NCBI GenBank assembly: GCA_038314665.1
Contig: GCA_038314665.1_3677.1
Length of the DNA stretch: 64,000 bases
Reading direction: 5' to 3' (one strand)
Source of the DNA: a phage
Shown here: in pieces, positions 23,709 through 62,410 of the stretch
How the letters are laid out: every line of letters begins with the position of its first letter
How positions within the stretch are numbered: position 1 is the stretch's first letter
Notes under the pieces: generated by a model
The model's database searches: none
The model's input: the letters and a program-made list of their open reading frames with translations, nothing else
What the model was told of the DNA's origin: nothing
Program-made: the position numbers and the translations under genes

Positions 23709-24023
23709 CTACCAAGTTACTGTCAAGTAGGCAACCGTATTATTTTTCTCTGGGGAGATGCCAACAACATCTACCTGCAGACCTCCTGCCCTTAAATCTC
23801 CAACAATGTGCGGGAAGTAATCTGAGAGATGCGAGGGTAGATTTATCGAAAATCCGCACCCCAGAAAGCCTGCTAACGCTTTATTTTGTATCTCCCCTAC
23901 AATCGCATCATAAATGGAGTTAAGCTCGTCAGGGAGCGTTACAGGGCGTTTTAGCGCTAGCTGGTGTAATTTGTCCTTAGCACTCATTTTCATTTCAGGT
24001 CTACCTCTGGGGGTGCCAACCAC
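23709..24023 (-). CDS. hypothetical protein (104 aa)
   Basis: ORF only. Confidence 0.45.
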   Translation of the reverse strand: MVGTPRGRPEMKMSAKDKLHQLALKRPVTLPDELNSIYDAIVGEIQNKALAGFLGCGFSINLPSHLSDYFPHIVGDLRAGGLQVDVVGISPEKNNTVAYLTVTW

Positions 24024-24523
24024 ATAAACGGCGGCAAGTCTAAACGGTTTTTCTTATCCCACACAAAATATGCATATGCTTGCCCGTCAGTTCTGCCGTT
24101 TGATTGAAATGATGGACGCTTAGATATTGTGATCACAGTAGTAGGTGCATTATCAAGCCACCATTCAAATCTGGCTTTGCTTTCCAGAAAATTAAGACGC
24201 AAAAGCATAATAACTACGTCAGCATCTTTCAACGCCTTGTCTACAAACTCACGAGCCAGGCTGTATGGTGGGTTGGTGATAATACAGTCAACATGGTTGT
24301 ATTCTGTATTCAGATAGTCAACACCTTCTTGTATTTCTCCCCATGCAGATCCTAACGGCATACGGGAGTAGAACACACCTGAGGCACTATTCCTGCAAGG
24401 CTCTAAGTAGGTCCAGTCTTCTGGGAACGGAATAAGGTCATACAGCCCTTCTGCACACCACTCCGGTGTCACATACTCATCGTAGGCGTTACGTTGTTCA
24501 TCAGGTTTTCTAGCACAAGTCAT
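23990..24523 (-). CDS. DNA N6-adenine (or N4-cytosine) methyltransferase, small NPPY type (177 aa)
   Basis: catalytic motif IV ITNPPY. Confidence 0.65.
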   Translation of the reverse strand: MTCARKPDEQRNAYDEYVTPEWCAEGLYDLIPFPEDWTYLEPCRNSASGVFYSRMPLGSAWGEIQEGVDYLNTEYNHVDCIITNPPYSLAREFVDKALKDADVVIMLLRLNFLESKARFEWWLDNAPTTVITISKRPSFQSNGRTDGQAYAYFVWDKKNRLDLPPFMWLAPPEVDLK

Positions 24524-24574: not shown

Positions 24575-25624
24575 TTAAGCTTCTTCGACAATTCCTGCAC
24601 CCAGGATTTTTTCATTGAGCTCTTTTGCTGTTTTAATAATATTGTCCACCAGACGCTTGCGAGTCTTATCTTTCACCTTAACCTCTTCACCGCCGTTCAG
24701 AGTAGTCTTCAATTGAGACAGAATATCCTGAAGTTCGACGACAGAGAATCGCTGCAGATCTTCTAAAGTAATTTCACCCAGGGCGATCCGGACGGTCTCG
24801 CCACTTTCCATCTGCAGATTCAGGAACACAGTGTGAACATCGCCTTTCATACCATTTGCTTTTGCAGACTCAACAGCATGAACCAGCTCGTCCAGAGATG
24901 TGCATTGGTGAATCTCTGGCAGGCCTGCTTCGCCTAGCACACCTTCTTCATCACTTTTTGCCAAAAGCTTTTTCGGTTTCTGTCCATTCTGAATGCGATG
25001 AATGTTTTCATCGTCCAGAATGATAGCACCAGTTCTAGATGCCAGCTCTTCTCCATCTAACCACACTTCACCGCCAGCTGTGATGGATGCTATCTCATCT
25101 TCTGTTAACACCCCACCGTAGTATTTTTCGATCAGGCGTTCAAAACGTTTCTTCCAGTAGTTGATCTGGGTATTCATGTTCACACCGTTACCATAGGTGC
25201 CACCTTGGTAGTAGTGGAACATAAACTCTGTGTCCGGAGCAACAGTGCGCTCTTTGCAACCCAGCCATAAGATTGTTCCAGCAGAGCAGCACATCCCTTC
25301 AGCATGTGCAACAACGCTTGCCTGAGACTCACGGAATGCCTGCAGATAAGCCATTGCAATGTGCACGCAACCCCCAGGGCTATTGATGATCACTCGAATG
25401 CTTTCTTCCGGCTGAGCCATACGGATCGTCTGCAGACGAGACATATGATCTTGTAAGTCTTCCAAATCGTCGATATAAAGAACGTGGTCAACAACTGGTG
25501 TTGGGTAGCTGTATGTTTCCATAATACCACCTGGCATACCAAACATTTTATTACTCATAGGTTCGAAACCGTTCTGTTTTTCTTTCATGCCGTGTACCAT
25601 GGTGCTGCGAGGTGTTAAATTCAT
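24575..25624 (-). CDS. ClpP-family (S14-like) serine peptidase with ~150-aa C-terminal extension (349 aa)
   Basis: RVIINSPGG and GMCCSAG resemble ClpP INSPGG and the catalytic Ser motif. Confidence 0.65.
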   Translation of the reverse strand: MNLTPRSTMVHGMKEKQNGFEPMSNKMFGMPGGIMETYSYPTPVVDHVLYIDDLEDLQDHMSRLQTIRMAQPEESIRVIINSPGGCVHIAMAYLQAFRESQASVVAHAEGMCCSAGTILWLGCKERTVAPDTEFMFHYYQGGTYGNGVNMNTQINYWKKRFERLIEKYYGGVLTEDEIASITAGGEVWLDGEELASRTGAIILDDENIHRIQNGQKPKKLLAKSDEEGVLGEAGLPEIHQCTSLDELVHAVESAKANGMKGDVHTVFLNLQMESGETVRIALGEITLEDLQRFSVVELQDILSQLKTTLNGGEEVKVKDKTRKRLVDNIIKTAKELNEKILGAGIVEEA

Positions 25625-25683: not shown

Positions 25684-25995
25684 TTATTTAGCAATCACTA
25701 TAGAATACTTACGATTGTCAGAAGCATCACAACTCAATGATTGCCAGTCTACCACATACCACGTATCATTGTCAACAATTACTTTATCGCCTGTTCTGTA
25801 GCAGGTGCTGCTTTCAATAATCCGAGACTCGATAAAGAATCTGTGTCGGCGCTCACGTAGCAACGCTAAGTTGATTATATTACCACCACTGTCCTTGATC
25901 CATACATTCTTGGATCCTTTATATGCCAGAATTGTCTCGCCGTTATAGACAAACAGGCAGTATATTTTATTCAGTTTCTCTTGTACTGTAGCCAT
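25684..25995 (-). CDS. hypothetical protein (103 aa)
   Basis: ORF only. Confidence 0.5.
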   Translation of the reverse strand: MATVQEKLNKIYCLFVYNGETILAYKGSKNVWIKDSGGNIINLALLRERRHRFFIESRIIESSTCYRTGDKVIVDNDTWYVVDWQSLSCDASDNRKYSIVIAK

Positions 25996-26093
25996 ACTAT
26001 CTCCTTCTCCTTGTCCGATAATAATATCTAAAGCTTACCTGTTTGTCAACAAATGTTTTAGATATCTAAGGGTGGAATAACCACCCTTCTGTG

Positions 26094-26882
26094 TTACTCG
26101 GAAACAGGGGTCCAAATATGATTTGCACGATCCTCAATAAGATTGAGTGCAATCTGACGACCCAATCCGGAACGAACGACATCGTCTGGACTATCAAAGC
26201 TGATCATTCCAACCTCAGGATCTGGATGACGAGTAAAGAAATCCGTCACCCATGCAAGTCCAGATTTACCAGGGATGTCACGTTGGCTATTATCGCCCAT
26301 GATTACAAGGGTGGCCTGATCAGAGATCCTTGTGATAATTGACAACATTTCTTCAGGGTTAGTTTGCTGTGCCTCGTCAATCAGGACAAAGCACCGCTCA
26401 TCGAAACTACGACCACGAATGCTTTCAACCTCACAAATCTCGATACGGCTGTTCTGACCATCTCCCAGCATTGCGGCAAAAGCACCTTTGCCAACACGAC
26501 GACAAATAGTGTCCATCATGCTTCGAAGATAAGGCCACAGTTTCTGCATTGCATTACCGGGTTTAAATCCTGAAGTCTTTCCTGTCTGAACGTAAGGACG
26601 TGCAACAATGATCTTATCAATCTCGTTCTTACGCAGAAGATCACCTGCATATGCAGATGCCATGAATGTCTTACCGGATCCAAACACACCGTTTACAATA
26701 ATAATCTTACGTGACCCTAGATAATCAAGATACTTTTGCTGCTTCTTATTCATTGGTCGGAGAGCTGGAGCGGTGTGCTCTCGTTCGTCAGCAAATTTCT
26801 CAGCAGCCTTACGCAGGCGATCAGATTTGCGAGCCTCTCTAGCTTCATCACGCATGCGTTTTGTTTCTTTAGCTCGACCCAT
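26094..26882 (-). CDS. phoH: PhoH-like ATPase (262 aa)
   Basis: P-loop GVFGSGKT and Walker B LIDEAQ in a PhoH-like arrangement. Confidence 0.7.
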   Translation of the reverse strand: MGRAKETKRMRDEAREARKSDRLRKAAEKFADEREHTAPALRPMNKKQQKYLDYLGSRKIIIVNGVFGSGKTFMASAYAGDLLRKNEIDKIIVARPYVQTGKTSGFKPGNAMQKLWPYLRSMMDTICRRVGKGAFAAMLGDGQNSRIEICEVESIRGRSFDERCFVLIDEAQQTNPEEMLSIITRISDQATLVIMGDNSQRDIPGKSGLAWVTDFFTRHPDPEVGMISFDSPDDVVRSGLGRQIALNLIEDRANHIWTPVSE

Positions 26883-27381: not shown

Positions 27382-27445
27382 TTGGCACCTCCTCCGCTTT
27401 CATTTTACGATAATTATACCTATCTAAACAAAACTTTGTCAACAA

Positions 27446-28093: not shown

Positions 28094-29356
28094 TCAGCAA
28101 CCACAACTTCCGTAGTGCTTAACCCGTTCTATAACTTCCGCTTGCTTACCTTTATTGTAAGGACGGGAGTTTGGACTAGACAGGTACCCGGATACACGTC
28201 TGATCACACTGATCGTTCCCTCTTCATGGTTTCCACACTCTGGGCATACAAAGCCTTTAGCTGTTGCACTAAACTCACCAGAGAAACCACACTTGAGACA
28301 TTTATCCACAGGTTGGTTAATACCAAAATACATAATGTGTTTATACCCGAAGTCAACAAGAGCCTCTAAAGCATCTAAATTGTTTTTCAGATTTGGTGTC
28401 TCTACGTATCCGATGTTGCCGCCAGAGGAGATCATAGCAAAACCCTCCTCATACTCCCACTTATCAAAAGGAGAACTATTGATCCACACTGGCTGATGGA
28501 AACTGTTGGTGAGATATTCATGCTCGTGCTTCAACACTTCAGGATATTCACGATCCAGACAGGTTGCAGCTTTATAGCATAGACTCTCAGAAGGGGTGCC
28601 GTACAAGCTAAACGCTAGTCTACTTTCCTTCTTGTATCGCTCACAAGCATCTCTCATGTGCTGGAGTATTCCAAGAGCTAAAGCCTTGTCACCCTCCCTG
28701 CCCAAAATCTGACAGGTTTCATACACACCAATATACCCAATACTGATGGAAGCGTACCCGTCATAGAAGAGTTTATCAATACTCTCTTCAGGATCCAGGC
28801 GAGCAAGAGCGCCTTCACACCACATGATAGGGTTCTGCCCTGCTTTGGTGCCTTTCAGACGGTTAACCCTTACAAGGTGAGCTTCATATGCCAAATCCAG
28901 ATACTCGTCAAGAACGGCAAAGAAATCAACACCTTCCGTCTTAGCTTTTGCCGCAATCATTGGCAGGTTAAGACTAACAACACCCAAGTTGAATCTGCCG
29001 AGGTATTTCTCCTCACCTGTTTCCAAGTCATTGTATTTGCTAAGAAAACTCCGGCAACCCATGCTCGTTACTTTGCCATCTGTCGAGCCTGTCACTTTAC
29101 GATTTAGTGGAACAGAAACAAAGTCAGGATAAATCCTCTCTGCAGAGCATTCCAGAGCTAATCGTTTCAAATCATAGTTAGGATCTCCAGGGTTCATGTT
29201 GACACCCTCTTCTAGGAAGAACAGCACTTTAGGGAACACAGGTGTGATACGTTCTTCACCAAGACCCATTTTGTGGACTTTCAAGTAGTTTTTGGTAATC
29301 ATTCTACCAAAGACTGAGGTATCCAGTCCTAAACTTAATGTGATGAATGGAGTCTG
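28094..29356 (-). CDS. nrdD: anaerobic ribonucleoside-triphosphate reductase, exon 2 (C-terminal part)
   Basis: TPFITLSLGLDTS...EGVNMNPGDPNYDL and C-terminal CxxC..CPEC zinc ribbon plus RVSGY Gly-radical region; exon start inferred from frame, preceding G and alignment to NrdD. Confidence 0.75.
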   Translation of the reverse strand, partial: QTPFITLSLGLDTSVFGRMITKNYLKVHKMGLGEERITPVFPKVLFFLEEGVNMNPGDPNYDLKRLALECSAERIYPDFVSVPLNRKVTGSTDGKVTSMGCRSFLSKYNDLETGEEKYLGRFNLGVVSLNLPMIAAKAKTEGVDFFAVLDEYLDLAYEAHLVRVNRLKGTKAGQNPIMWCEGALARLDPEESIDKLFYDGYASISIGYIGVYETCQILGREGDKALALGILQHMRDACERYKKESRLAFSLYGTPSESLCYKAATCLDREYPEVLKHEHEYLTNSFHQPVWINSSPFDKWEYEEGFAMISSGGNIGYVETPNLKNNLDALEALVDFGYKHIMYFGINQPVDKCLKCGFSGEFSATAKGFVCPECGNHEEGTISVIRRVSGYLSSPNSRPYNKGKQAEVIERVKHYGSCGC

Positions 29357-30154
29357 CTGTCTCCTCCCCTGTGTTTCCACAGGGCCAGACTATCTCTTAC
29401 TCTACTTCAATAAGATAATAACCCTTTATTGTGAGATGCTTACCTTCGGCATTTCCTTCGATAGCCCTATGAACGTTACCTACGTTCAAATTTAAGGCTT
29501 TTGCACAGGCATAGAGTGAAGGATATTCACCCACCAAGGTTTTCCCTTTGTATGCCTGTACTTTCCTATAGCACTTACCTGGACAAAGTCCTGTTCGGAA
29601 AGCATGTCTCTTATTATCTTCCGGCAAAACCCACTCTAGGTTAGACGGATGATCATTCAATGTATTGCCATCTTTATGATTCACTTCCCAGTTTTCAGGG
29701 TCTTCTGGGACATCTGGCAAACAATACAAGGCAACAATCCTTGAGGTTTGGATTCGAATCTTTTTACCTTTGTGGTTGAAAGAGTACATATAACGGCGTT
29801 TAACATGCTTGTTACCTTTTCCATAACCTCCCCACAATATTGGGTGTAGCATTCCACGTTTTCCGTATACGTTTCCGACCTCATCAATCACATAGTTTGA
29901 TTCTTCACCATTAAGAATGATCTTTTTCATAGAGCCTCTCCATTTCGAAGTTAGTATTTCAACTAACCCCTACACTACTTGGTTCAGAAATGTTTGTCAA
30001 GCATCTCTGCCTTTCGTTAGTCGTTACAACCGTTCCAACTCCTGTAAGAACTAGTCACGGGATTGGCATAGCTTTCGCCTTAGCGTTCCCCGTTAGCCGG
30101 ATTTACCGACCCCTCTTATGAGGTTAGGAGAGTTTTACAACGGCCAGTTTGTTA
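29357..30154 (-). other. group I self-splicing intron (IA-like) in nrdD, carrying an HNH homing endonuclease ORF
   Basis: 5' exon ends in U then UAA; guide GCCGUUG complementary to exon end CAACGGU; R-like GTTGTAACGACTAACGAAAG (30011-30030); S-like AAGAGATAGTCTGG (29385-29398); GNRA hairpin CCCTGTG-GAAA-CACAGGG. Confidence 0.75.
29397..29930 (-). CDS. intron-encoded HNH homing endonuclease (177 aa)
   Basis: HNH motif EVNHKDGNTLNDHPSNLEWVLPEDNKRHA; sits between the two halves of nrdD. Confidence 0.75.
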   Translation of the reverse strand: MKKIILNGEESNYVIDEVGNVYGKRGMLHPILWGGYGKGNKHVKRRYMYSFNHKGKKIRIQTSRIVALYCLPDVPEDPENWEVNHKDGNTLNDHPSNLEWVLPEDNKRHAFRTGLCPGKCYRKVQAYKGKTLVGEYPSLYACAKALNLNVGNVHRAIEGNAEGKHLTIKGYYLIEVE

Positions 30155-31015
30155 ACCGTTGACAGAGGTTAACGTATTGATTTGATAGAGCAACGTCTGC
30201 ATGCTGTCAAACACGTCTTTATCTGTCATTTGCATTGCAACAGTCTCAGCATCTGGCAACCAGTGCTCCTGGCAAAATTTAAGATTCTTCTCATAGGTCG
30301 CCTCAGCATACTGTGCCAGATAATGATCAATATGGCTCATAGTCTGACCTCCATATTGAGCACTAGCTACTGCACTAGAGATTTGGCTAAGGATTGTTGT
30401 TGCAACCCCTATTGACTTCGGCTTACTGACATGGGCGTTGCCAATGTTGAATCCGTTTTCCAACATATCTGGATAATTTACCAAACAACAGTTTGTTAAC
30501 GGACTGATCAAGTAGTCAAGATCATGCACATGGATGAAGCCTTTATTGTGCTCTTCTGAGACACGGTCTGGCAGGATCTGTGTTGATGCAAGGTGTTTGC
30601 TAAGGATGCCTGCAAGCAGGTCACGATGAGTGTGTACATGATTGGTAGGCTTATTTGCGTTTTCTTTTGTAAATTCATCACAAGTGCGATCCAAGAAGCC
30701 ACTAATATCTGCAAGCAGTTTTCCACCTGCCTCTCTGTTATTATCTCTTGTCTGCCTATACTGGATGTATTCTCTGGCTGCACATTTTAAACCCATATCC
30801 ATAAGAGCGTCTTCAACAAGGATATGGATATTTTTTACAGAGATCGTGCACTGGTCGGTTGGTAGATTGTTAGCAACAACTTCATTAACCGCGCAGGCGA
30901 TCCGGTAAGCTTCTTCTTCAGTATGTCCAGACTCAAGTAAGGCGGACTCTGCCGCCTTGATCACCTTAATTCCGTTATAGACCTCTTCTCTACCGTCCCG
31001 TTTTACAACTTTCAC
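30155..31015 (-). CDS. nrdD: anaerobic ribonucleoside-triphosphate reductase, exon 1 (ATP-cone N-terminal part)
   Basis: VVKRDGREEVYNGIKV ATP-cone start; ORF ends at the UAA that begins the intron. Confidence 0.75.
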
Positions 31016-53908: not shown

Positions 53909-53983
53909 GCCCTGTTAGCTTAGTGGATAAAGCAGCGGCCTTCTAAGCCGTTGACACTGGTTCGAGTCCAGTACGGGGTGCCA
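53909..53983 (+). tRNA. tRNA-Arg (anticodon TCT)
   Basis: manual cloverleaf: acceptor GCCCTGT/ACGGGGT, anticodon loop CTTCTAA, T-loop TTCGAGT, encoded CCA. Confidence 0.75.
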
Positions 53984-54113
53984 AGTTCTTTTTAATGTAG
54001 CTTACTTTAGCAGAGTAAATCTTCGGCAAGTGGCGGTAACCACTTTACCGATACCTCATAGTTAGTGGTGAGAACACTAGCTATTTTAAAAAGAATTTAA
54101 ATATTAGTATTTA

Positions 54114-54201
54114 GGTGAGTTAATTCCGTAGGGGTAGCGGGGCAGACTGTAAATCTGTTATCATTGCGATTCGGGTGGTTCGACTCCATCACTCACCACC
54201 A
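54114..54201 (+). tRNA. tRNA-Tyr (anticodon GTA)
   Basis: acceptor GGTGAGT/ACTCACC, anticodon loop CTGTAAA, long variable arm, CCA. Confidence 0.8.
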
Positions 54202-54315
54202 AATTTATATTTTTAAATGCATAAATCATACAGATAATGGCATTGATATTTATCGTCGTTTATACTAGTCACTAACTGCTCGAAAATCAGTGTCATTATC
54301 AGTATAATTTATAAA

Positions 54316-54406
54316 GGAGGGTAGGGAGCAATGGTGCTCAAGCGGTCTTGAAAACCGTCCCATTGAGGATGACTCGATGATGGTTCGATTCCATTACTCT
54401 CCGCCA
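54316..54406 (+). tRNA. tRNA-Ser (anticodon TGA)
   Basis: acceptor GGAGGGT/ACTCTCC, anticodon loop CTTGAAA, long variable arm, CCA. Confidence 0.75.
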
Positions 54407-54504
54407 CATTGTTGACCTTGTAATTAAGCGAAAGCCGGAAGCAGAACCGGATTATCAAATGTTACAGTCGTCATCGCCGACTAGCAACATGGTCAACATA
54501 CTGA

Positions 54505-54603
54505 GCTAGGTAAGCCCTTTGGCAAGGGCGAGGATTTTTAATCCTGAAAATAGACGAGGTAGTCGTTGAATACATAGGTGGTTCGATTCCACCGCCTAGC
54601 ACC
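54505..54603 (+). tRNA. atypical tRNA-like gene (99 nt), anticodon possibly TTT
   Basis: acceptor GCTAGGT/GCCTAGC and T-arm GGTGG-TTCGATT-CCACC are clear; loop TTTTTAA on a short stem; about 30 nt between anticodon arm and T-arm. Confidence 0.4.
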
Positions 54604-54608
54604 TTTTT

Positions 54609-54684
54609 GCTGATGTAGCACAATTGGCAGTGCAATTGATTTGTAATCAATAGGTTGCAGGTTCAAGTCCTGCCATCAGCACCA
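54609..54684 (+). tRNA. tRNA-Thr (anticodon TGT)
   Basis: acceptor GCTGATG/CATCAGC, anticodon loop TTTGTAA, T-loop TTCAAGT, CCA. Confidence 0.8.
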
Positions 54685-54685
54685 A

Positions 54686-54760
54686 GGCCCTGTAGCTGGA
54701 AGGTTCAAGCAAGCGACTCATAATCGCCAGACGGTGGTTCAATTCCACCCAGGGCCACCA
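54686..54760 (+). tRNA. tRNA-Met (anticodon CAT; elongator Met or Ile2 type)
   Basis: acceptor GGCCCTG/CAGGGCC, anticodon loop CTCATAA, CCA. Confidence 0.7.
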
Positions 54761-54771
54761 AATGGTAAATA

Positions 54772-54848
54772 CTCCGCGTAGCTCAGCTTGGTAGAGCGCC
54801 TGATTTGGGATCAGGAGGTCGAGTGTTCGAATCACTCCGTGGAGACCA
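54772..54848 (+). tRNA. tRNA-Pro (anticodon TGG)
   Basis: acceptor CTCCGCG/CGTGGAG with C1-G72, anticodon loop TTTGGGA, T-loop TTCGAAT, CCA. Confidence 0.8.
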
Positions 54849-55668: not shown

Positions 55669-55952
55669 GAGTTGCTACACTGTTTATTGTGTGCTTGTTA
55701 TTATGTGGGTGTGCAACCAGCGTTGAGAGAGAATACAGGATTGACACTCCAGATGTAGGAAGGTTGATTGTTAAACCCCCAGAAGGTGCCATGAAACCAC
55801 CTGCTAGAGCTATGCCTTTGAAGAAAGGTGCGCCAGATGCGGTGAATTCTGGCATTATGAGGGATAATAATCTGTCTTGTAGCAATGATAGAGCTAAATT
55901 GATCATTTTGCAAGACTATATTAGAACACTGTTTCCAAAGGAGAGAGGTTAA
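55665..55952 (+). CDS. o-spanin (Rz1-like outer-membrane lipoprotein), 95 aa
   Basis: lipoprotein signal FIVCLLLCGC, Pro-rich mature part; ATGA overlap with the i-spanin. Confidence 0.65.
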   Translation: MRVATLFIVCLLLCGCATSVEREYRIDTPDVGRLIVKPPEGAMKPPARAMPLKKGAPDAVNSGIMRDNNLSCSNDRAKLIILQDYIRTLFPKERG

Positions 55953-56377
55953 TGTCTAAGATTTACGGACCGTGTTCTGAAAAGCAGAAGATGATCCTAG
56001 AAAACGATGCAGATATTTTGGTAATCGGAGGTGCCGCAGGGTCTGGCAAGTCGTTCCTCTTGCAGTTGATGCCACTTAAAATTATTGATGACCCCCACAG
56101 CTCTGTGGTTATGTTCCGAAGAACAACCCCACAGTTGGAAGGTGAGGGTGGACTATGGCCTAAAGCAGTAGCTATTTATAGTGATCTGCCTGAAAACATT
56201 AAGCCAAAGTTCAGAGAGAAGGATCATAAGTTCATTTTTCCACGGTTTGATCCGAACACTGGTAAGTGGGATAGAAGCAAAAAGGGGGCTGTTGTAAAAT
56301 ACTGCCACATGGAGTATGTACAAGATAAGCTTAACCACCAGGGGCTTGAGTACACCATGGTTTGCTTCGATGAGGGT
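55952..56377 (+). CDS. terL: terminase large subunit, exon 1 (ATPase N-terminal part)
   Basis: Walker A GGAAGSGKS and Walker B MVCFDE; ORF ends at the UAA that begins the intron. Confidence 0.8.
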
Positions 56378-56696
56378 TAATTTGTAGCTCTCGTAAAACC
56401 TCCCTAATTGCGGGGAAATCTTTATTATTGACACCACCAACCTGTTATGGTAACATAATAGAGGCTTCGAAGAGAGATCGAAGGTATGGTAACAGTGTGT
56501 TAATTTAGATAATCCGCAGCGAAGCATCCGATAGGATGAACGTTCAACGACTAGTCGAAAGACGTAGAATCAAGCGATTCGAAACGGGAGGGTAAGCGGT
56601 TGTTGTCGCTTATAAGATATAGTCTGGTCTGCATGGAGACATGCAGCTGCCTGAAAATGGCGGGGCAAGACTAGCGACCTTGCCCGAACATAAACG
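56378..56696 (+). other. group I self-splicing intron (IA-like, no ORF) in the terminase large-subunit gene
   Basis: P-like AATTGCGGGGAAA 56406-56418, Q-like AATCCGCAGC 56511-56520, R-like GTTCAACGACTAGTCGAAAG 56542-56561, S-like AAGATATAGTCTGG 56614-56627; guide GCTCTC 56387-56392; ends in G. Confidence 0.8.
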
Positions 56697-57818
56697 ACAC
56701 AATTCGAATGGGAGCAGATAGACTATCTGATGTCTCGTCTGCGATCTCAGTCAAAGTATCCATCAAGGATGGTTATCAGCTGTAACCCCGATTCAGAACA
56801 CATGCTTGCCAAACTGGTTAGATGGTGGTTGGACGATGAAGGGTATCCAGATCCGGAGAAGTGCGGTAAGAAAAGATATTTTATCCGACGCGACGGTGAA
56901 TTTATTTGGGGAGACTCTAAGGAAGAGTTGATAGAGAAATACACCACGGTTAACGGACTGGGTGTAGAGATCAAGCCAAGACCGTTGTCATTCTCGTTCA
57001 TAGGCGCAACAATATTCGATAATCCTGTCTGTTTGAGAGACAACCCAGAATACCTTGCTTTCCTCGAAGGTCTACCAGAGCTGGAAAAAGCTCAGCTTCT
57101 CCATGGTAACTGGTTTGCAAAGCCTGAGGGTGCAAACTATTTTCAAAGATCTTTCCTTCGTGATGCCGATAGAGTACCCCTTGGATCAGTATCTTGCAGG
57201 GCATGGGATAAGGCAGGAACCGAGAGAACTTCTGGCAATAAATTTCCTGACTTTACTGCCAGTATTAAGGTAAGTAAAGATAGCGACGGCTTTTATTACC
57301 TGTCAGGGGATTATTGTCCTGAAAACGTGGATGACGGGAGGTATTCCACAGGTCTGGAAGGCAAGTTCTGTAAAAAGGCTGGTGAACGAGATGTGATCAT
57401 CAGGAAACAGGCGCAGTTTGATGGTGATGATTGCATAATCGTATTCTCTGTGGACCCTGGTCAGGCAGGTAAGAGTGAGTTCTTAACCTCATCCAGATCC
57501 TTGCTCGCAGAAGGGTTCAGGGTTGAAGAAGACCCAATGCCTTCCAACAAGTCTAAACTGACAAGGTTCTCACCTTTTGCCAATCTTGCCCAACAAGGGA
57601 TGGTGAGGATTGTAAAATCCAGTTTCCATCCTGATACTCTGGAAGCATTTCTGACCGAACTTGAAAAATTCAACGGGGAAAGATCAACATTTAACAGAAA
57701 AGACGACTGGGCTGACTGTGTAGCTTCTGCAATTAATTTCCTGGAGAAAGAGGAGGTAGCACTTCCTTGTGTGATTCCATCAATCTCATCACCTTCTATG
57801 TTCAAGCGTTTTATCTAA
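56697..57818 (+). CDS. terL: terminase large subunit, exon 2 (ATPase coupling motif plus nuclease domain)
   Basis: ISCNP coupling-type motif and nuclease-domain-sized C-terminus; exon 2 start inferred from frame, preceding G and continuity after Walker B. Confidence 0.75.
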   Translation, partial: TQFEWEQIDYLMSRLRSQSKYPSRMVISCNPDSEHMLAKLVRWWLDDEGYPDPEKCGKKRYFIRRDGEFIWGDSKEELIEKYTTVNGLGVEIKPRPLSFSFIGATIFDNPVCLRDNPEYLAFLEGLPELEKAQLLHGNWFAKPEGANYFQRSFLRDADRVPLGSVSCRAWDKAGTERTSGNKFPDFTASIKVSKDSDGFYYLSGDYCPENVDDGRYSTGLEGKFCKKAGERDVIIRKQAQFDGDDCIIVFSVDPGQAGKSEFLTSSRSLLAEGFRVEEDPMPSNKSKLTRFSPFANLAQQGMVRIVKSSFHPDTLEAFLTELEKFNGERSTFNRKDDWADCVASAINFLEKEEVALPCVIPSISSPSMFKRFI

Positions 57819-57920: not shown

Positions 57921-59477
57921 GTGTCCAAAAAGAACCGCAGGAAACACAACGCCACAGCCAAAACTGTGAATAAATCTGGGAACGCAGGCGCACCAACTCA
58001 TAATGTTCGTATGAGTGAGATCGGTTCTGGCGCACTTTCCCAAATTATGGCAGAATCGCAATCTATGATGGTTGAGGAATTGCGTTGGCCTCAGCTGATT
58101 GCTACAGTGGAGACTATGAAATGTGATTCCACAGTTGCTACTGCCTTAGATACAAAATATGTTTTCATCACGAAAGCATTTAATGATTTTAAGATCCTTT
58201 ATAATGTTAAAAGTGAAGACTCTAAGAAAGCTGCCGAGCTTATAGAGTATTCTTTGCGTAATTTGGCAAACCAACAAACCCTTCGGGATATTGCAAGAAG
58301 CGCAGCTACCTTTAACGAGTATGGTTTTTCACTGTTTGAGAAAGTATACCGCAGAGAGAAAGAAGGTAAATATGCCGGGATGCTTCTTATTGATAAAATT
58401 GCATTCCGACCTCAGGCCAGTCTGTCCAGATCAGAGCCGTTTGTCTTTGACAAGAATAGTAGAACACTGACAGGTATTTATCAGTCACCTAATGCATTTC
58501 TAAACACTCAGAATGCACGCTGGGCTGGACCTCTTGCTGCAATGCCTTCAAAAGGCTTTAATGAGCCTGAAATTTTCATCCCTGCTAAAAAGCTTATGCT
58601 CATGACCCTGTCAGGAACAGAATCTAACCCTGCAGGTGTGTCACCTATGATAGGTTGCTACAGATCTTTCCGTGAGAAAGTTCTGATTGAAAACCTTGAG
58701 GTTGTTGGCTGTTCCAAAGACCTTGGTGGTGTGCTTGAGCTGAAAATTCCTTCCAATATTTTGAACAAGGCCAGCATTGACCCGAATTCAATGGAAGGGA
58801 GAATGGTTGCAGATCTTATGCTTGACGCAGCAAACGCCCATAGTGGTGAGCAAAGTTTCTTTATACTTCCGTCTGATAGAGATAAGTCTGGTAAAGAGCT
58901 TTACTCCATGACCCTGAAGGGGGTTGACGGTATGGGTAAGCAGTATTCCACTAAAGATTTGATTGATGCCCGTAAGAAGGCGATTCTTGACCGTTTCGGT
59001 GCTGGCTTTATTAACCTCGGTAACGATAACGTTGGATCCTTCTCTCTGTCTGAGTCAAAACAGTCTATCCATGGTCATTTTGTTCAGCGTGATATAGATA
59101 TTATCACTGAAGCCTTCAATAAAGATCTTATTCCACAGCTTCTGGCATTGAATGGTATCATCCTTGAAGATGATGATATGCCTAAACTGAAACCTGGTCT
59201 GATTGAAGAGGTGGACATGGAGAGCTTCTCCAAGTTTGTCCAGAGGATCGGTGCTGTAGGTTACTTGCCAAAAACTCCTGCAGTAATTAATAAGATTCTT
59301 GAAGTAGGTGGGTTTGATGAAAGATTTGACGAGGACATGGATCAGGAAGAGCTGATGAAGCTCTTGGGCCAGGACATTAGTAGAGCTGGTGATGGAATGG
59401 CTGCAGGATCCACTGGTAACGGCACTTCTAAGATGTCATCAACCAGAGATAATTCCATATCCAACATGGAAAATTAA
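57921..59477 (+). CDS. putative portal protein (518 aa), GTG start
   Basis: size and position directly downstream of terL; no motif confirmed by eye. Confidence 0.5.
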   Translation: MSKKNRRKHNATAKTVNKSGNAGAPTHNVRMSEIGSGALSQIMAESQSMMVEELRWPQLIATVETMKCDSTVATALDTKYVFITKAFNDFKILYNVKSEDSKKAAELIEYSLRNLANQQTLRDIARSAATFNEYGFSLFEKVYRREKEGKYAGMLLIDKIAFRPQASLSRSEPFVFDKNSRTLTGIYQSPNAFLNTQNARWAGPLAAMPSKGFNEPEIFIPAKKLMLMTLSGTESNPAGVSPMIGCYRSFREKVLIENLEVVGCSKDLGGVLELKIPSNILNKASIDPNSMEGRMVADLMLDAANAHSGEQSFFILPSDRDKSGKELYSMTLKGVDGMGKQYSTKDLIDARKKAILDRFGAGFINLGNDNVGSFSLSESKQSIHGHFVQRDIDIITEAFNKDLIPQLLALNGIILEDDDMPKLKPGLIEEVDMESFSKFVQRIGAVGYLPKTPAVINKILEVGGFDERFDEDMDQEELMKLLGQDISRAGDGMAAGSTGNGTSKMSSTRDNSISNMEN

Positions 59478-59544
59478 AAATTATCAACACAGGGGGTTGC
59501 AAAACCTCCTTTGGCGTGATAAAATAATCCACATGGGGAATAAG

Positions 59545-59964
59545 ATGCCACAGGAAGAAATGATTTCCTACGAAATCATCTACGAGCCTGACACTAAAGA
59601 TGCTCACGGTGAGTGGATGAGTAAAGACACCATCAAAAAGGCTAAAGATAACTGGGACGCAGCATACGCCGCAGGACTAGTTTCTGAAAACCTTTTTCAC
59701 TTGACCTCTACAGATGCTTTCACTATTGAAAAGACGTGGATTCAAGAAGAGTTTGATGTTGTAGTAATTGGCACTGAGCAGGTCATCAAGGCTGGCTCTT
59801 GGGTTGCTAAAGTTAAATACAATAATCCTGAATTATGGGAAGCTAAGAAGGCTGGTATTGTTGGTGGCCTAAGCATTCAGGCAACTGGTAATGTTGATGA
59901 AGAGACTGGTGAAATTACCAACGTAAACTTCGGGATCAGTGTTGTAGAAGAGGGCAATGAATAA
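59545..59964 (+). CDS. putative head maturation protease-like protein (about 139 aa)
   Basis: motif YEIIYEPDTKDAHGEWM resembles XkdF/S78-type prohead proteases; start uncertain (in-frame ATGs at 59533, 59545, 59560). Confidence 0.35.
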   Translation: MPQEEMISYEIIYEPDTKDAHGEWMSKDTIKKAKDNWDAAYAAGLVSENLFHLTSTDAFTIEKTWIQEEFDVVVIGTEQVIKAGSWVAKVKYNNPELWEAKKAGIVGGLSIQATGNVDEETGEITNVNFGISVVEEGNE

Positions 59965-60941
59965 TGTCTGAAAAAACGATTACTATTAAAGAGAAGGGGA
60001 TTGCCCTGTGCCATAAGGCTCAAGGCTATAGCGCTAACAACAGACCTGTATCCCTTCTGATGAAGAGTGATCTTCGGCCTGAGCAATTAACAGAGGATAT
60101 TGTTAAGGCACTTCGCCAAGTTACTGTGGAGCTTAGTTTTGAAGAATACCTGCGTCGTTTCTTCGATATGTGGTATGATGATGCTAAAGCACTTGCACAC
60201 ATGCTTGGCTTTGAGATTGAAGAAGAGGCTTGGGCTAAAGAGCATCCTGATTGGGAATGGGCGCAAGCTGACGCAGAGTCTTGTATTGCATGGCTGGAAG
60301 AGCGTTGTGATAACGTGACCATTCATAAAGCTGCAAAAGAAGGCAAGCAGCTTAGTGTGGTAGATCAATACAGTCTGTTAAAAACACAACAGATTTTTGA
60401 ACAAGTAACCGCTGATCTCTTCGATAAAGAAGGGAACCTGATTAAGGCGGTACAGGAACCTGCTGAGGTGGATAAAACTACCGAGGCGGATGATATTGAA
60501 AAATCCGCAAATACCGAGGAGAATCCGGTGGACGTAACCAAAACCAAAGAGTACCTGGACCTGCTGAAGCAAGTAGAAGAGCTGAAAGCGACCCAGAGTA
60601 AAGCTGAAGAAATTATTAAGGCCCAGGTTGAAGTTGAAAAAGCTAAAATGCTGACTAAGGCTCAAGCTTTAAGCTTTGTTGGTGAAGAAGATCATGCAAC
60701 CTTGGTTGACTTCATGCTGGAAAAAGCTAACGAACCTATCGTAGCTATGCTGGAGAAAGCTCAAGCAAAAATTGAAGAGCTGGAAGCAGAGGTGCATAAA
60801 ACTAAAGAAGAGTTTGCCACCACTGAACATGGTAATGATGGCGAACCTGTTGTGGATGATATTGCAAAATCCGCAGAAGAAATTCTTGCTGAAAACGTTG
60901 CAAAAGCACTTGCTCGTGCACGTGCAGAATCTAACAAATAA
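59964..60941 (+). CDS. putative scaffolding protein (325 aa)
   Basis: acidic, long predicted coiled-coil; located between the portal and capsid genes. Confidence 0.5.
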   Translation: MSEKTITIKEKGIALCHKAQGYSANNRPVSLLMKSDLRPEQLTEDIVKALRQVTVELSFEEYLRRFFDMWYDDAKALAHMLGFEIEEEAWAKEHPDWEWAQADAESCIAWLEERCDNVTIHKAAKEGKQLSVVDQYSLLKTQQIFEQVTADLFDKEGNLIKAVQEPAEVDKTTEADDIEKSANTEENPVDVTKTKEYLDLLKQVEELKATQSKAEEIIKAQVEVEKAKMLTKAQALSFVGEEDHATLVDFMLEKANEPIVAMLEKAQAKIEELEAEVHKTKEEFATTEHGNDGEPVVDDIAKSAEEILAENVAKALARARAESNK

Positions 60942-60961
60942 GACATTAACGGGGGAAATAA

Positions 60962-61351
60962 ATGATTACCGCTCAATATTCTGATATCGTGCTCGGCAAA
61001 GTTGATTCTAGCGATGCTGGCTACAATTTTAAAGAGATGGAAATTACACTGACAGAGCACCATCATGCTGGCACGGTTGTGACCAAAGATGGTAGCATTG
61101 CCAATCAGGACGGTTCAGACGCCTATGGCGTTCTGGTGGATCGTGCTTTAATTCCGGACGCTGCTGGTAAAGTACATATCGCTGAACCTCTTGGCACAAA
61201 GAAATATAAACTGGTTGTTGCTGTGCGTGGTGTTACTTTTGCCAAGGATAAATTGCTGGCAACTGGTGGTGCTAAAGCAGAACAGGCTGTGTTAGACAAG
61301 CTTGAGGCTCTGGGTAACAAGGTTCAGGTCCAGACTCTTGGTGAAGAGTAA
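60962..61351 (+). CDS. putative head decoration or accessory head protein (129 aa)
   Basis: immediately upstream of the major capsid gene, as in lambda D-E order; no sequence match confirmed. Confidence 0.4.
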   Translation: MITAQYSDIVLGKVDSSDAGYNFKEMEITLTEHHHAGTVVTKDGSIANQDGSDAYGVLVDRALIPDAAGKVHIAEPLGTKKYKLVVAVRGVTFAKDKLLATGGAKAEQAVLDKLEALGNKVQVQTLGEE

Positions 61352-61399
61352 GCCCTAAATTGTTCGGGAAAATATTTAAGTTTTACTTTGGAGAAATAA

Positions 61400-62410
61400 A
61401 TGATTACTCGTAAAGATGAATTTGGCATTGTTGATTTAGGTGCTACTCTGGACCTTGTTCCGCGTCAATTCCGACTGATTACTGGTATGGATCTGTTCGA
61501 AACCCGTCTCGGCACCTCAACGATTGCTCAGATCGAGCGTGTTGATGAAGTTGTAACCGACATTCCGGCACGCCGTCGTGGTGGTGAGCGTAACTACGTT
61601 GGTAATGAACGTGCTCAGGTTAAAAACCTGAACATCCCGTTCTTCCCTCTGGACAAAGGCATCACCGCCGCAGATGTTCAGAACTTCCGTCGTTACTTCA
61701 CCCCTGATGCTCCGAAAACTGTTCAGGACGTAGTAACCCGCGTTGTTCGTCGTATCCGTGTTTCCCATGAAGCACTGCGTGAGAAAGCGCTGTTCCAGGC
61801 TATTCTTGGTAAATCCTATGCACCTGGTGACGCTACCTGCCAGTATGATTACTACACTCTGTGGGGCGTAGAGCAGAAATCTGTAGAAATCGATCCTGCA
61901 AAAGCAGATCAGGACCCGATGGAAGTTCTGGAAGACGCTCGTCTGCATATCGCCCTGCAAGCTGGTGACAACGCTGCTGGCTACCGTATCGTGGCTCTGT
62001 GCTCTCCTGAGTTCTTCAGTGCAGTCACTCACCACCCGCTGGTAGAGCTGGCATACACCTACTACGGCTCTGCTCAGGAACCTCTGCGTCGTCGTCTGGG
62101 TGCTGGCGGTCAGGACAGCGTTTATCGTGTGTTCGAACATAAAGGTATCACCTTTATCGAAGATATCTCTGGCAATATTCCTAAGAAAGAAGCTCGCATT
62201 CTGCCGATGGGTATTGATCAGATGTTCCAGCTGCACTTTGCTCCGGCAGATGATGTTAACGAAGCAAATACCCCGGCACAGGAACTGTATATGTGGTATA
62301 AACACTCTGCATACCTGCGTGAAGAGAAGATTGAATCTGAAACTTCTATGCTGGCAGTTAACACCCGTCCAGAGCTGGTTGTTAAAGCAACTCTGAAAGG
62401 TGGTGAATAA
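61400..62410 (+). CDS. putative major capsid protein (336 aa)
   Basis: size and position in the head module, strong RBS GGAGAAATAA, strong terminator immediately downstream. Confidence 0.6.
   Translation: MITRKDEFGIVDLGATLDLVPRQFRLITGMDLFETRLGTSTIAQIERVDEVVTDIPARRRGGERNYVGNERAQVKNLNIPFFPLDKGITAADVQNFRRYFTPDAPKTVQDVVTRVVRRIRVSHEALREKALFQAILGKSYAPGDATCQYDYYTLWGVEQKSVEIDPAKADQDPMEVLEDARLHIALQAGDNAAGYRIVALCSPEFFSAVTHHPLVELAYTYYGSAQEPLRRRLGAGGQDSVYRVFEHKGITFIEDISGNIPKKEARILPMGIDQMFQLHFAPADDVNEANTPAQELYMWYKHSAYLREEKIESETSMLAVNTRPELVVKATLKGGE

Follow-up and report, generated by a model that had tools for sequence, protein, structure and literature searches.

A probable non-structural ClpP-fold peptidase encoded apart from the head genes of an rV5-like phage

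What role does a ClpP-like protease play when its gene lies far from the phage head module? This question is raised by a 64,000-nt stretch of phage DNA (GenBank assembly GCA_038314665.1, contig GCA_038314665.1_3677.1; hereafter the window), in which a minus-strand open reading frame (ORF) at positions 24575..25624 encodes a 349-amino acid ClpP-like protease homologous to rV5 gp117 (ORF122). An initial annotation, made without database searches, had remarked that ClpP-like proteins of phages tend to be prohead proteases with genes next to those of the capsid, and had proposed that this one is either a host-targeting protease or a relocated head protease. Our analysis makes it likely that the gene product is a non-structural, early- or middle-phase, self-compartmentalising ClpP-fold peptidase that operates without canonical ClpX/ClpA docking and that uses its C-terminal extension for targeting or gating.

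The motifs on which the original identification relied, INSPGG (residues 80-85) and CCSAG (residues 112-116), do belong to a ClpP homolog, as shown by the intact ORF and by Pfam, phrog, PDB and Foldseek comparisons. The protein matches Pfam CLP_protease with E=1.6e-12 and 48.1 bits (gathering cut-off 20.2), and sequence comparison with PDB ClpP chains gives E about 1e-7. When an AlphaFold2 (AF2) model was searched against the PDB using Foldseek, the top matches were all ClpP, with E about 1e-9, a template modelling score of about 0.68 (target-normalised) and about 20% identity, placing the protein in the ClpP family (Pfam PF00574, MEROPS S14) at the level of fold. The protease domain occupies residues 45-215 (24980..25492, minus strand) and is modelled with a predicted local distance difference test (pLDDT) score of about 90. 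It is preceded by an N-terminal region of residues 1-44 (25493..25624, minus strand; pLDDT about 30) that is predicted to be disordered, carries conserved F28-G29 and Y40-P41 pairs, and lines up with the segment that forms the axial loop in E. coli ClpP. An AAGGA Shine-Dalgarno sequence is followed by M1 about 7 nt downstream of the motif.

Among phage protein families, the closest profile is that of phrog_5410 ("ATP-dependent protease"; E=5e-154), which matches residues 24-345 and thus includes the C-terminal module, followed by phrog_1827 (E=2.9e-40). Across the 2.9 kb surrounding the gene, identity is 98.5% with Escherichia phage LL12 and about 96% with rV5 (Vequintavirus), with 110 phage records covering at least 80% of this query region, and on such sequence grounds the window phage is an rV5-like Vequintavirus. 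The protein is 96-99% identical to products annotated as ClpP-like protease in more than 100 Vequintavirus genomes; the label "ClpP ATP-dependent protease subunit" for rV5 gp117 dates from the rV5 genome deposit, and curated BASEL phages label the gene "ClpP-like protease". The gene is therefore already known as an annotation, and a routine one. The clade to which it belongs is widespread, with no fewer than 3,239 representatives when clustered at 50% identity, and occurs in several genera of therapeutic phages. Literature searches covering ClpP homologs of phages, those of ICP1 and Vequintavirus included, returned no experimental work on function and, for all members of the clade, no data on expression, activity or substrates; the PAK_P3 transcriptome paper holds no per-gene information on a Clp homolog. 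Nineteen GenBank records named "Campylobacter phage" (MG065635, MG065653, MG065654, MG065666 and others) share about 96% identity in this region with rV5-like phages of E. coli, which suggests host misattribution or contamination in these deposits.

Alignment of the catalytic residues, which the initial annotation had named as a check, upholds the nucleophile and the base. Ser114 (codon 25283-25285, minus strand) and His137 (codon 25214-25216, minus strand) are invariant in 30 of 30 close family members and in the wider alignment, and stand in register with Ser97 and His122 of E. coli ClpP; the conserved oxyanion glycine is Gly85 of INSPGG. Conservation of Ser114, His137 and the oxyanion Gly remains complete when several hundred divergent homologs are compared. 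The third position is less regular. Glu186 (codon 25067-25069, minus strand) aligns with Asp171 of E. coli ClpP, and this position holds Glu in 5 and Gln in 25 of the 30 close relatives. Because Asp is retained there in more distant, short homologs, the ancestral triad appears to be canonical, with the acid relaxed in the branch that holds the window gene.

In cellular ClpP, the IGF loops of ClpX and the IGL loops of ClpA are received by an apical pocket that in the E. coli enzyme comprises L23, L48, F49, A52, Y60, Y62, F82, I90, M92, F112, L114 and L189 (10.1101/820209). By alignment, the counterparts in the phage protein are, in the same order, P43, deletion, deletion, M69, R77, I79, E99, H107, E109, T127, A129 and L203, with L48 and F49 falling in a 5-residue deletion and M69 counted by hand from the alignment. 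Fixed points for the mapping are the ungapped INSPGG, GxxxS (catalytic Ser) and P-x6-H motifs, and four of the substituted residues, R77, E99, H107 and E109, are invariant in the ClpP-like family. Thus, the hydrophobic docking pocket for IGF/IGL loops was looked for and is absent from the ClpP-like protein, and with this pocket lost the enzyme probably works without ClpX or ClpA. Since conserved polar residues have taken the place of the pocket, the designation "ATP-dependent", carried over to the family from cellular ClpP, is doubtful and probably misleading. The rV5 gene list contains no ClpX/ClpA-like unfoldase, the only candidate being a distant MoxR-type ATPase encoded far from the gene. 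A screen of the Keio collection with phage LL12 recovered only lipopolysaccharide genes, and no clpX, clpA or clpP.

The charged C-terminal extension of about 150 amino acids reported by the initial annotation is accurately described (residues 200-349 are 31% charged, 18% D+E and 13% K+R), and resolves into two parts. The first is an acidic, largely disordered linker at residues 216-263 (24836..24979, minus strand; pLDDT below 50 at 222-240 and 258-263), which is poorly conserved and varies in length across the family. The second is a folded module of ~85 amino acids at residues 264-349 (24578..24835, minus strand), predicted to form a β-hairpin followed by a helix, a long loop and another helix; its folded part extends over about residues 264-343 (AF2 pLDDT 70-92). 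F293, E297 and R322 are invariant within this module, and a basic patch at residues 315-334 (window 24623-24682) contains 8 Lys or Arg in 20 residues. Resemblance of the module to SAP, HeH and Rho_N domains remained below significance in both sequence and structure, and a profile homology search with the module returned no matches, not even family members, and hence is uninformative. By these comparisons the module is without a recognisable relative. The possibility that it represents a scaffold-like or capsid-binding domain was considered and rejected, as alignment with the phage's own scaffold by hhalign gave a probability of 0.14%. A local hidden Markov model (HMM) search over collected homologs found the extension missing altogether in about half of the clade. 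C-terminal tails rich in Lys and Arg, some of them AKP/H1-like repeats, are a recurring feature of the non-structural ClpP-like clade. In 35% of homologs, a 20-residue window with 8 or more Lys or Arg lies within the last 40 residues, and the tail mean is 6.2 versus 2.4 for internal windows.

The placement of the gene in a metabolism block, between a methyltransferase and PhoH, was also noted correctly at the outset, save that one small ORF intervenes on the PhoH side, and this type of location recurs at the sampled loci of the clade. About 30 loci were sampled, comprising five annotated phage lineages besides rV5, 17 IMG/VR loci and 8 metagenomic contigs, and among them no portal, capsid or terminase gene occurs within 3.5-8 kb of a ClpP-like homolog. 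In ICP1, a 326-amino acid homolog adjoins genes for ribonucleotide reductase (RNR), PhoH and DNA ligase. The homolog of the KVP40-like, T4-like phage phi-pp2 lies at 3.8 kb, with frd on one side and uvsX on the other, and this genome encodes gp21, the "prohead core scaffolding protein and protease", at 224.6 kb, within a full T4 head module 220 kb from the homolog. Pakpunavirus, Sugarlandvirus and Otagovirus-like homologs reside among genes for dCMP deaminase, ligase, dNMP kinase and small early-type proteins. At the 17 related IMG/VR loci, no homolog of the portal, XkdF-type protease, scaffold or capsid genes was found within 8 kb; these near-relative loci were retrieved with a closer alignment subset, as the diverse protease alignment has no stretch conserved enough for a pattern search. 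The 8 metagenomic contigs with diverse homologs carry no head genes within 7 kb, their neighbours being RNR, PhoH, ligase, primase, UvsW, clamp loader, RegA and DNA polymerase. Vibrio phage K254 gp4 and Gordonia phage JuJu gp4 served as positive controls; both are weaker ClpP-type matches annotated as head proteases, and both are situated inside terminase-portal-protease-capsid arrays. The premise that a ClpP-like protein of a phage is usually a prohead protease thus applies only to other ClpP-type families such as these controls, but not to the phrog_5410/phrog_1827 clade.

The linkage with PhoH is frequent without being universal. A PhoH gene lies 0-2.3 kb upstream on the same strand at 16 of the 17 related viral loci, in ICP1, on two ICP1-like contigs and in Pseudomonas phage Pyxpy02 (Otagovirus-like; L008 2651-4019), in which the PhoH and ClpP-like genes overlap by 8 nt. 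PhoH as a universal partner was nevertheless rejected, since linkage is lacking in KVP40-like phages (where 155 kb separate the pair), at Pakpunavirus, Sugarlandvirus and jumbo-phage loci, and on five other contigs. All of the PhoH-linked lineages share the same XkdF-type head module, and inherited synteny is therefore as good an explanation of the linkage as functional coupling. On the metagenomic T4-like contig L030 (6185-7606), the ClpP-like gene is located one 93-amino acid ORF downstream of a phage peptide deformylase, a proximity that hints at a link to the handling of nascent or N-terminal peptides.

The window phage encodes a second protease within its head module (57921..62410, plus strand), which extends from the portal to the major capsid protein and is separated from the ClpP-like gene by ~33 kb and by opposite strand orientation. 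The portal gene (57921-59477) is followed by an XkdF-type (Peptidase_S78_2) protease gene (59533..59964; Pfam E=1.1e-17, 64.6 bits, cut-off 24), a 325-amino acid acidic scaffold-like protein (59964-60941), a decoration protein (60962-61351) and a lambda-E-type major capsid protein (61400-62410), all on the plus strand. As called from 59389, the XkdF-type ORF overlaps the portal gene by 89 nt, and its real start is probably 59533 or 59545. Comparison of five divergent homologs reveals an invariant DxHG motif, a second invariant His (H56) and an invariant GxS114; the order of His before Ser is also that of the catalytic residues H85 and S140 of T4 gp21, as cited in a report on protease sensing (10.64898/2026.03.04.709575). 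The same order of portal, XkdF protease, scaffold, decoration and capsid genes is present in ICP1, Otagovirus M5.1, Justusliebigvirus BME3, AlexBoehm and an Arthrobacter phage, and in ICP1 a scaffold gene is annotated in this module and its scaffold function has been experimentally confirmed (PMC10945586). The BASEL annotation labels this protein "prohead protease", the ICP1 genomes use "capsid protease", and from its sequence and position the window protein is likely to be the true head-maturation protease. The RefSeq record of rV5 (NC_011041 55883-56455) and several others mislabel it "DNA methyltransferase", following phrog_1530. Phages of the rV5 type would therefore carry two proteases, with the head-protease candidate mislabelled in several records.

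Published virion data point in the same direction. The mass spectrometry table of rV5 virions lists 19 proteins (PMC3606486, Additional file 5), and ORF122, the ClpP-like protein, is not among them, which is indirect evidence against a presence in proheads; ORF63, the XkdF-type protease, is likewise absent. The scaffold-like ORF62 appears in trace amounts, with 2 spectra versus 2,030 for the capsid protein (PMC3606486). The mature major capsid protein of rV5 retains residues 5-22, with a peptide that begins at residue 5 (PMC3606486), and from this retention of its N-terminus it follows that no N-terminal delta domain is removed. A relocated head protease is accordingly disfavoured by the phage's own XkdF-type protease, by the coexistence with gp21 in phi-pp2, by the consistent distance from head genes and by the absence from rV5 virions, and the hypothesis of a host-targeting protease is compatible with this evidence.

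Within its own block, the gene lies in an apparent transcription unit. A sigma70-type promoter, TTGACA-17-TATTAT (26021..26049, minus strand; 11/12 consensus match), which corresponds to the annotated rV5 promoter P121, precedes a small ORF, the ClpP-like gene and the methyltransferase gene. The small ORF (25684..25995, minus strand) encodes 103 amino acids, is homologous to rV5 gp116, belongs to phrog_5456 with no assigned function, and in more distant relatives is 30-36% identical or undetectable. The downstream neighbour is a DNA N6-adenine methyltransferase (23990..24523, minus strand; rV5 gp118 homolog, phrog_799 E=8e-67) that is found directly 3′ of the ClpP-like gene in 17 of 17 related loci, and the upstream neighbour is a PhoH-like ATPase (26094..26882, minus strand; Pfam PhoH E=3.6e-47).

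From these observations, a second phage protease of non-structural character can be proposed, a cytoplasmic ClpP-fold serine peptidase that would be expressed from a promoter of the host RNA polymerase together with PhoH, the DNA methyltransferase and nucleotide-metabolism genes. The sigma70 promoter and the expected co-expression with DNA-metabolism genes would place its activity in the early or middle, replication phase of infection and not in head assembly. By analogy with ClpP, the protein most likely forms rings with the Ser114-His137(-Glu186) active sites inside, and its targets would be peptides, unstructured proteins or directly recruited partners. The C-terminal extension would exit on the apical face, where the ClpP C-terminus emerges, and the flexible acidic linker with its family-specific module and basic patch would most plausibly constitute a device for targeting, recruitment or gating.

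Several points weigh against this proposal. The sigma70 promoter is a consensus match only. The pocket mapping uses an alignment at about 20% identity, and a non-canonical interaction with a host ATPase, or the formation of mixed rings with host ClpP, is conceivable. The triad acid is Glu here, and 25 of 30 close relatives have Gln instead, so that a lowered activity is conceivable. A single shotgun proteome, made from mature virions, leaves room for a transient presence in proheads, and the XkdF-type protease also escaped detection in it. Finally, genuine head proteases can carry C-terminal helical extensions, as do T1-like protease-scaffold fusions.

Some of these points lead directly to alternative explanations. 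The protein might be a true ATP-dependent ClpP that docks host ClpX or ClpA, or that forms mixed tetradecamers with a host ClpP ring in the manner of ClpP1P2, thereby redirecting or poisoning host Clp proteolysis. Its ClpP fold, its normal-length handle region and an N-terminal segment about as long as that of ClpP would suit such a role, and in known heteromeric ClpP1P2 complexes only one ring binds the ATPase, so that a ring lacking the pocket would not be disqualified. We nonetheless regard this explanation as unlikely, given that five of the eight same-protomer pocket residues are now conserved charged or polar residues, that F82 of the neighbouring protomer is replaced by Glu and L48/F49 are deleted, that no clp gene emerged among the host requirements of LL12, and that, from the topology of ClpP, seven C-terminal extensions per ring would be expected to crowd the apical face on which the ATPase docks. 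A catalytically weakened protein that acts mainly by binding, as a decoy, inhibitor or assembly factor, would account for the Gln that takes the place of the triad Asp in 25 of the 30 close relatives, and inactive ClpR-type paralogs in plastids offer a precedent. The invariance of Ser114, His137 and the oxyanion Gly across several hundred homologs would be unexpected for a non-enzyme, and Ser-His dyads are sufficient in other serine peptidases, which makes this the least probable of the explanations considered and a very improbable one.

A head-maturation protease or co-protease whose gene lies apart from the head module, and whose C-terminal module serves as a capsid- or scaffold-targeting domain, finds support in HMM scores, by which the protein is closer to phage "head maturation protease" families (the ClpP-type phrog_1684, E=1.5e-22; phrog_94 and phrog_2976 also match) than to cellular ClpP in Pfam. 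In addition, C-terminal targeting or scaffold domains are frequent in head proteases, and the XkdF-type family is itself only a "putative" protease family whose member is undetected in virions. Against these stand the presence of a canonical protease gene with conserved His and Ser, flanked by the portal gene 5′ and the scaffold gene 3′; the T4-like phage phi-pp2, which holds gp21 as well as a ClpP-like homolog; the lack of the extension in about half of the clade; the failure of the gene to be linked to head genes at any sampled locus; the sigma70 promoter and the DNA-metabolism setting; the dissimilarity of the module to the scaffold by hhalign; and the preserved N-terminus of the mature capsid protein, which leaves no delta domain to be removed. 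On this balance, a role in head maturation appears quite unlikely.

A more specific version of the non-structural peptidase proposal can be entertained, speculatively and with more doubt than conviction. The clade might represent a distinct class of phage enzyme, a chaperone-independent ClpP-fold peptidase that acts while large lytic phages replicate and that is tethered by its basic C-terminal patch or tail to a polyanion, with DNA or RNA as the most plausible candidates. Such a tethered peptidase could perhaps clear host proteins bound to nucleic acid, perhaps together with the syntenic PhoH ATPase. This idea bears on a 2026 preprint describing a cyclic oligonucleotide-based antiphage signaling system (CBASS) whose sensor, one of the cGAS/DncV-like nucleotidyltransferases (CD-NTases), is activated through cleavage by a phage protease and restricts Vequintavirinae, the specificity differing from that of T4 gp21 (10.64898/2026.03.04.709575). 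If the tether proposal holds, the ClpP-like protein, rather than the head protease, could be the activity sensed by CBASS CD-NTases in Vequintavirinae. Which of the two Vequintavirinae proteases acts, and when, bears directly on the sensing of these phages by CBASS.

Additional features of the window were recorded. On the minus strand, a perfect consensus sigma70 promoter, TTGACA-18-TATAAT (27413-27442; 12/12), which corresponds to the annotated rV5 promoter P118, is positioned 5′ of the small ORFs that come before PhoH. The anaerobic ribonucleotide reductase NrdD (28094-31015, minus strand) is split by an HNH-type endonuclease ORF (29397-29930) into a 287-amino acid N-terminal ORF (30152-31015) and a 428-amino acid C-terminal ORF (28094-29380), and Rfam detects no group I intron at this split gene at the gathering threshold; the rV5 nrdD gene is unsplit, at 2,124 nt. 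Near the head module, a group I intron (Rfam RF00028, 84 bits; window 56368-56646, plus strand) splits the large terminase gene into exons at 55952-56380 and 56730-57818. The large terminase of rV5 is in three pieces with an HNH endonuclease, whereas the window phage seems to be without the second insertion. Five tRNA genes are clustered at 53909-54845 (plus strand), just 5′ of the spanin and terminase genes, and match the rV5 tRNA block.

Among known systems, the nearest is rV5 gp117 itself, which is the same gene in the same PhoH ... ClpP - methyltransferase neighbourhood and shows no difference of substance. The full-length profile match and the location among replication and nucleotide-metabolism genes place the window protein in the phrog_5410/phrog_1827 clade, whose hosts are Vequintavirinae, ICP1, Pakpunavirus, Otagovirus, KVP40-like and jumbo phages. 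With cellular ClpP (E. coli ClpP, PDB 1tyf/6wr2), the protein shares the alpha/beta fold with its handle helix, the INSPGG oxyanion motif and the Ser/His register; it differs in its low identity of about 20%, the change of Asp171 to Glu or Gln, a helix B that is 5 residues shorter, a polar docking pocket, and an extra 135-amino acid C-terminal linker and module. The ClpP/S49-type head proteases, represented by K254 gp4 and JuJu gp4, have a related protease domain (tblastn E about 5e-6), and in T1-like protease-scaffold fusions, too, an N-terminal protease is followed by a helical extension at the C-terminus. The genes of those head proteases, however, occupy the interval between portal and capsid, whereas the ClpP-like gene resides in a DNA-metabolism block, coexists with a separate head protease and encodes an extension unrelated to scaffold. 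Lon offers an analogy of function only: it is a cytoplasmic serine protease that associates with DNA, a behaviour that the basic patch and tails and the replication context of the ClpP-like family would fit, but the two proteins are not homologous, the phage protein has no AAA+ domain, and its binding to nucleic acid is putative.

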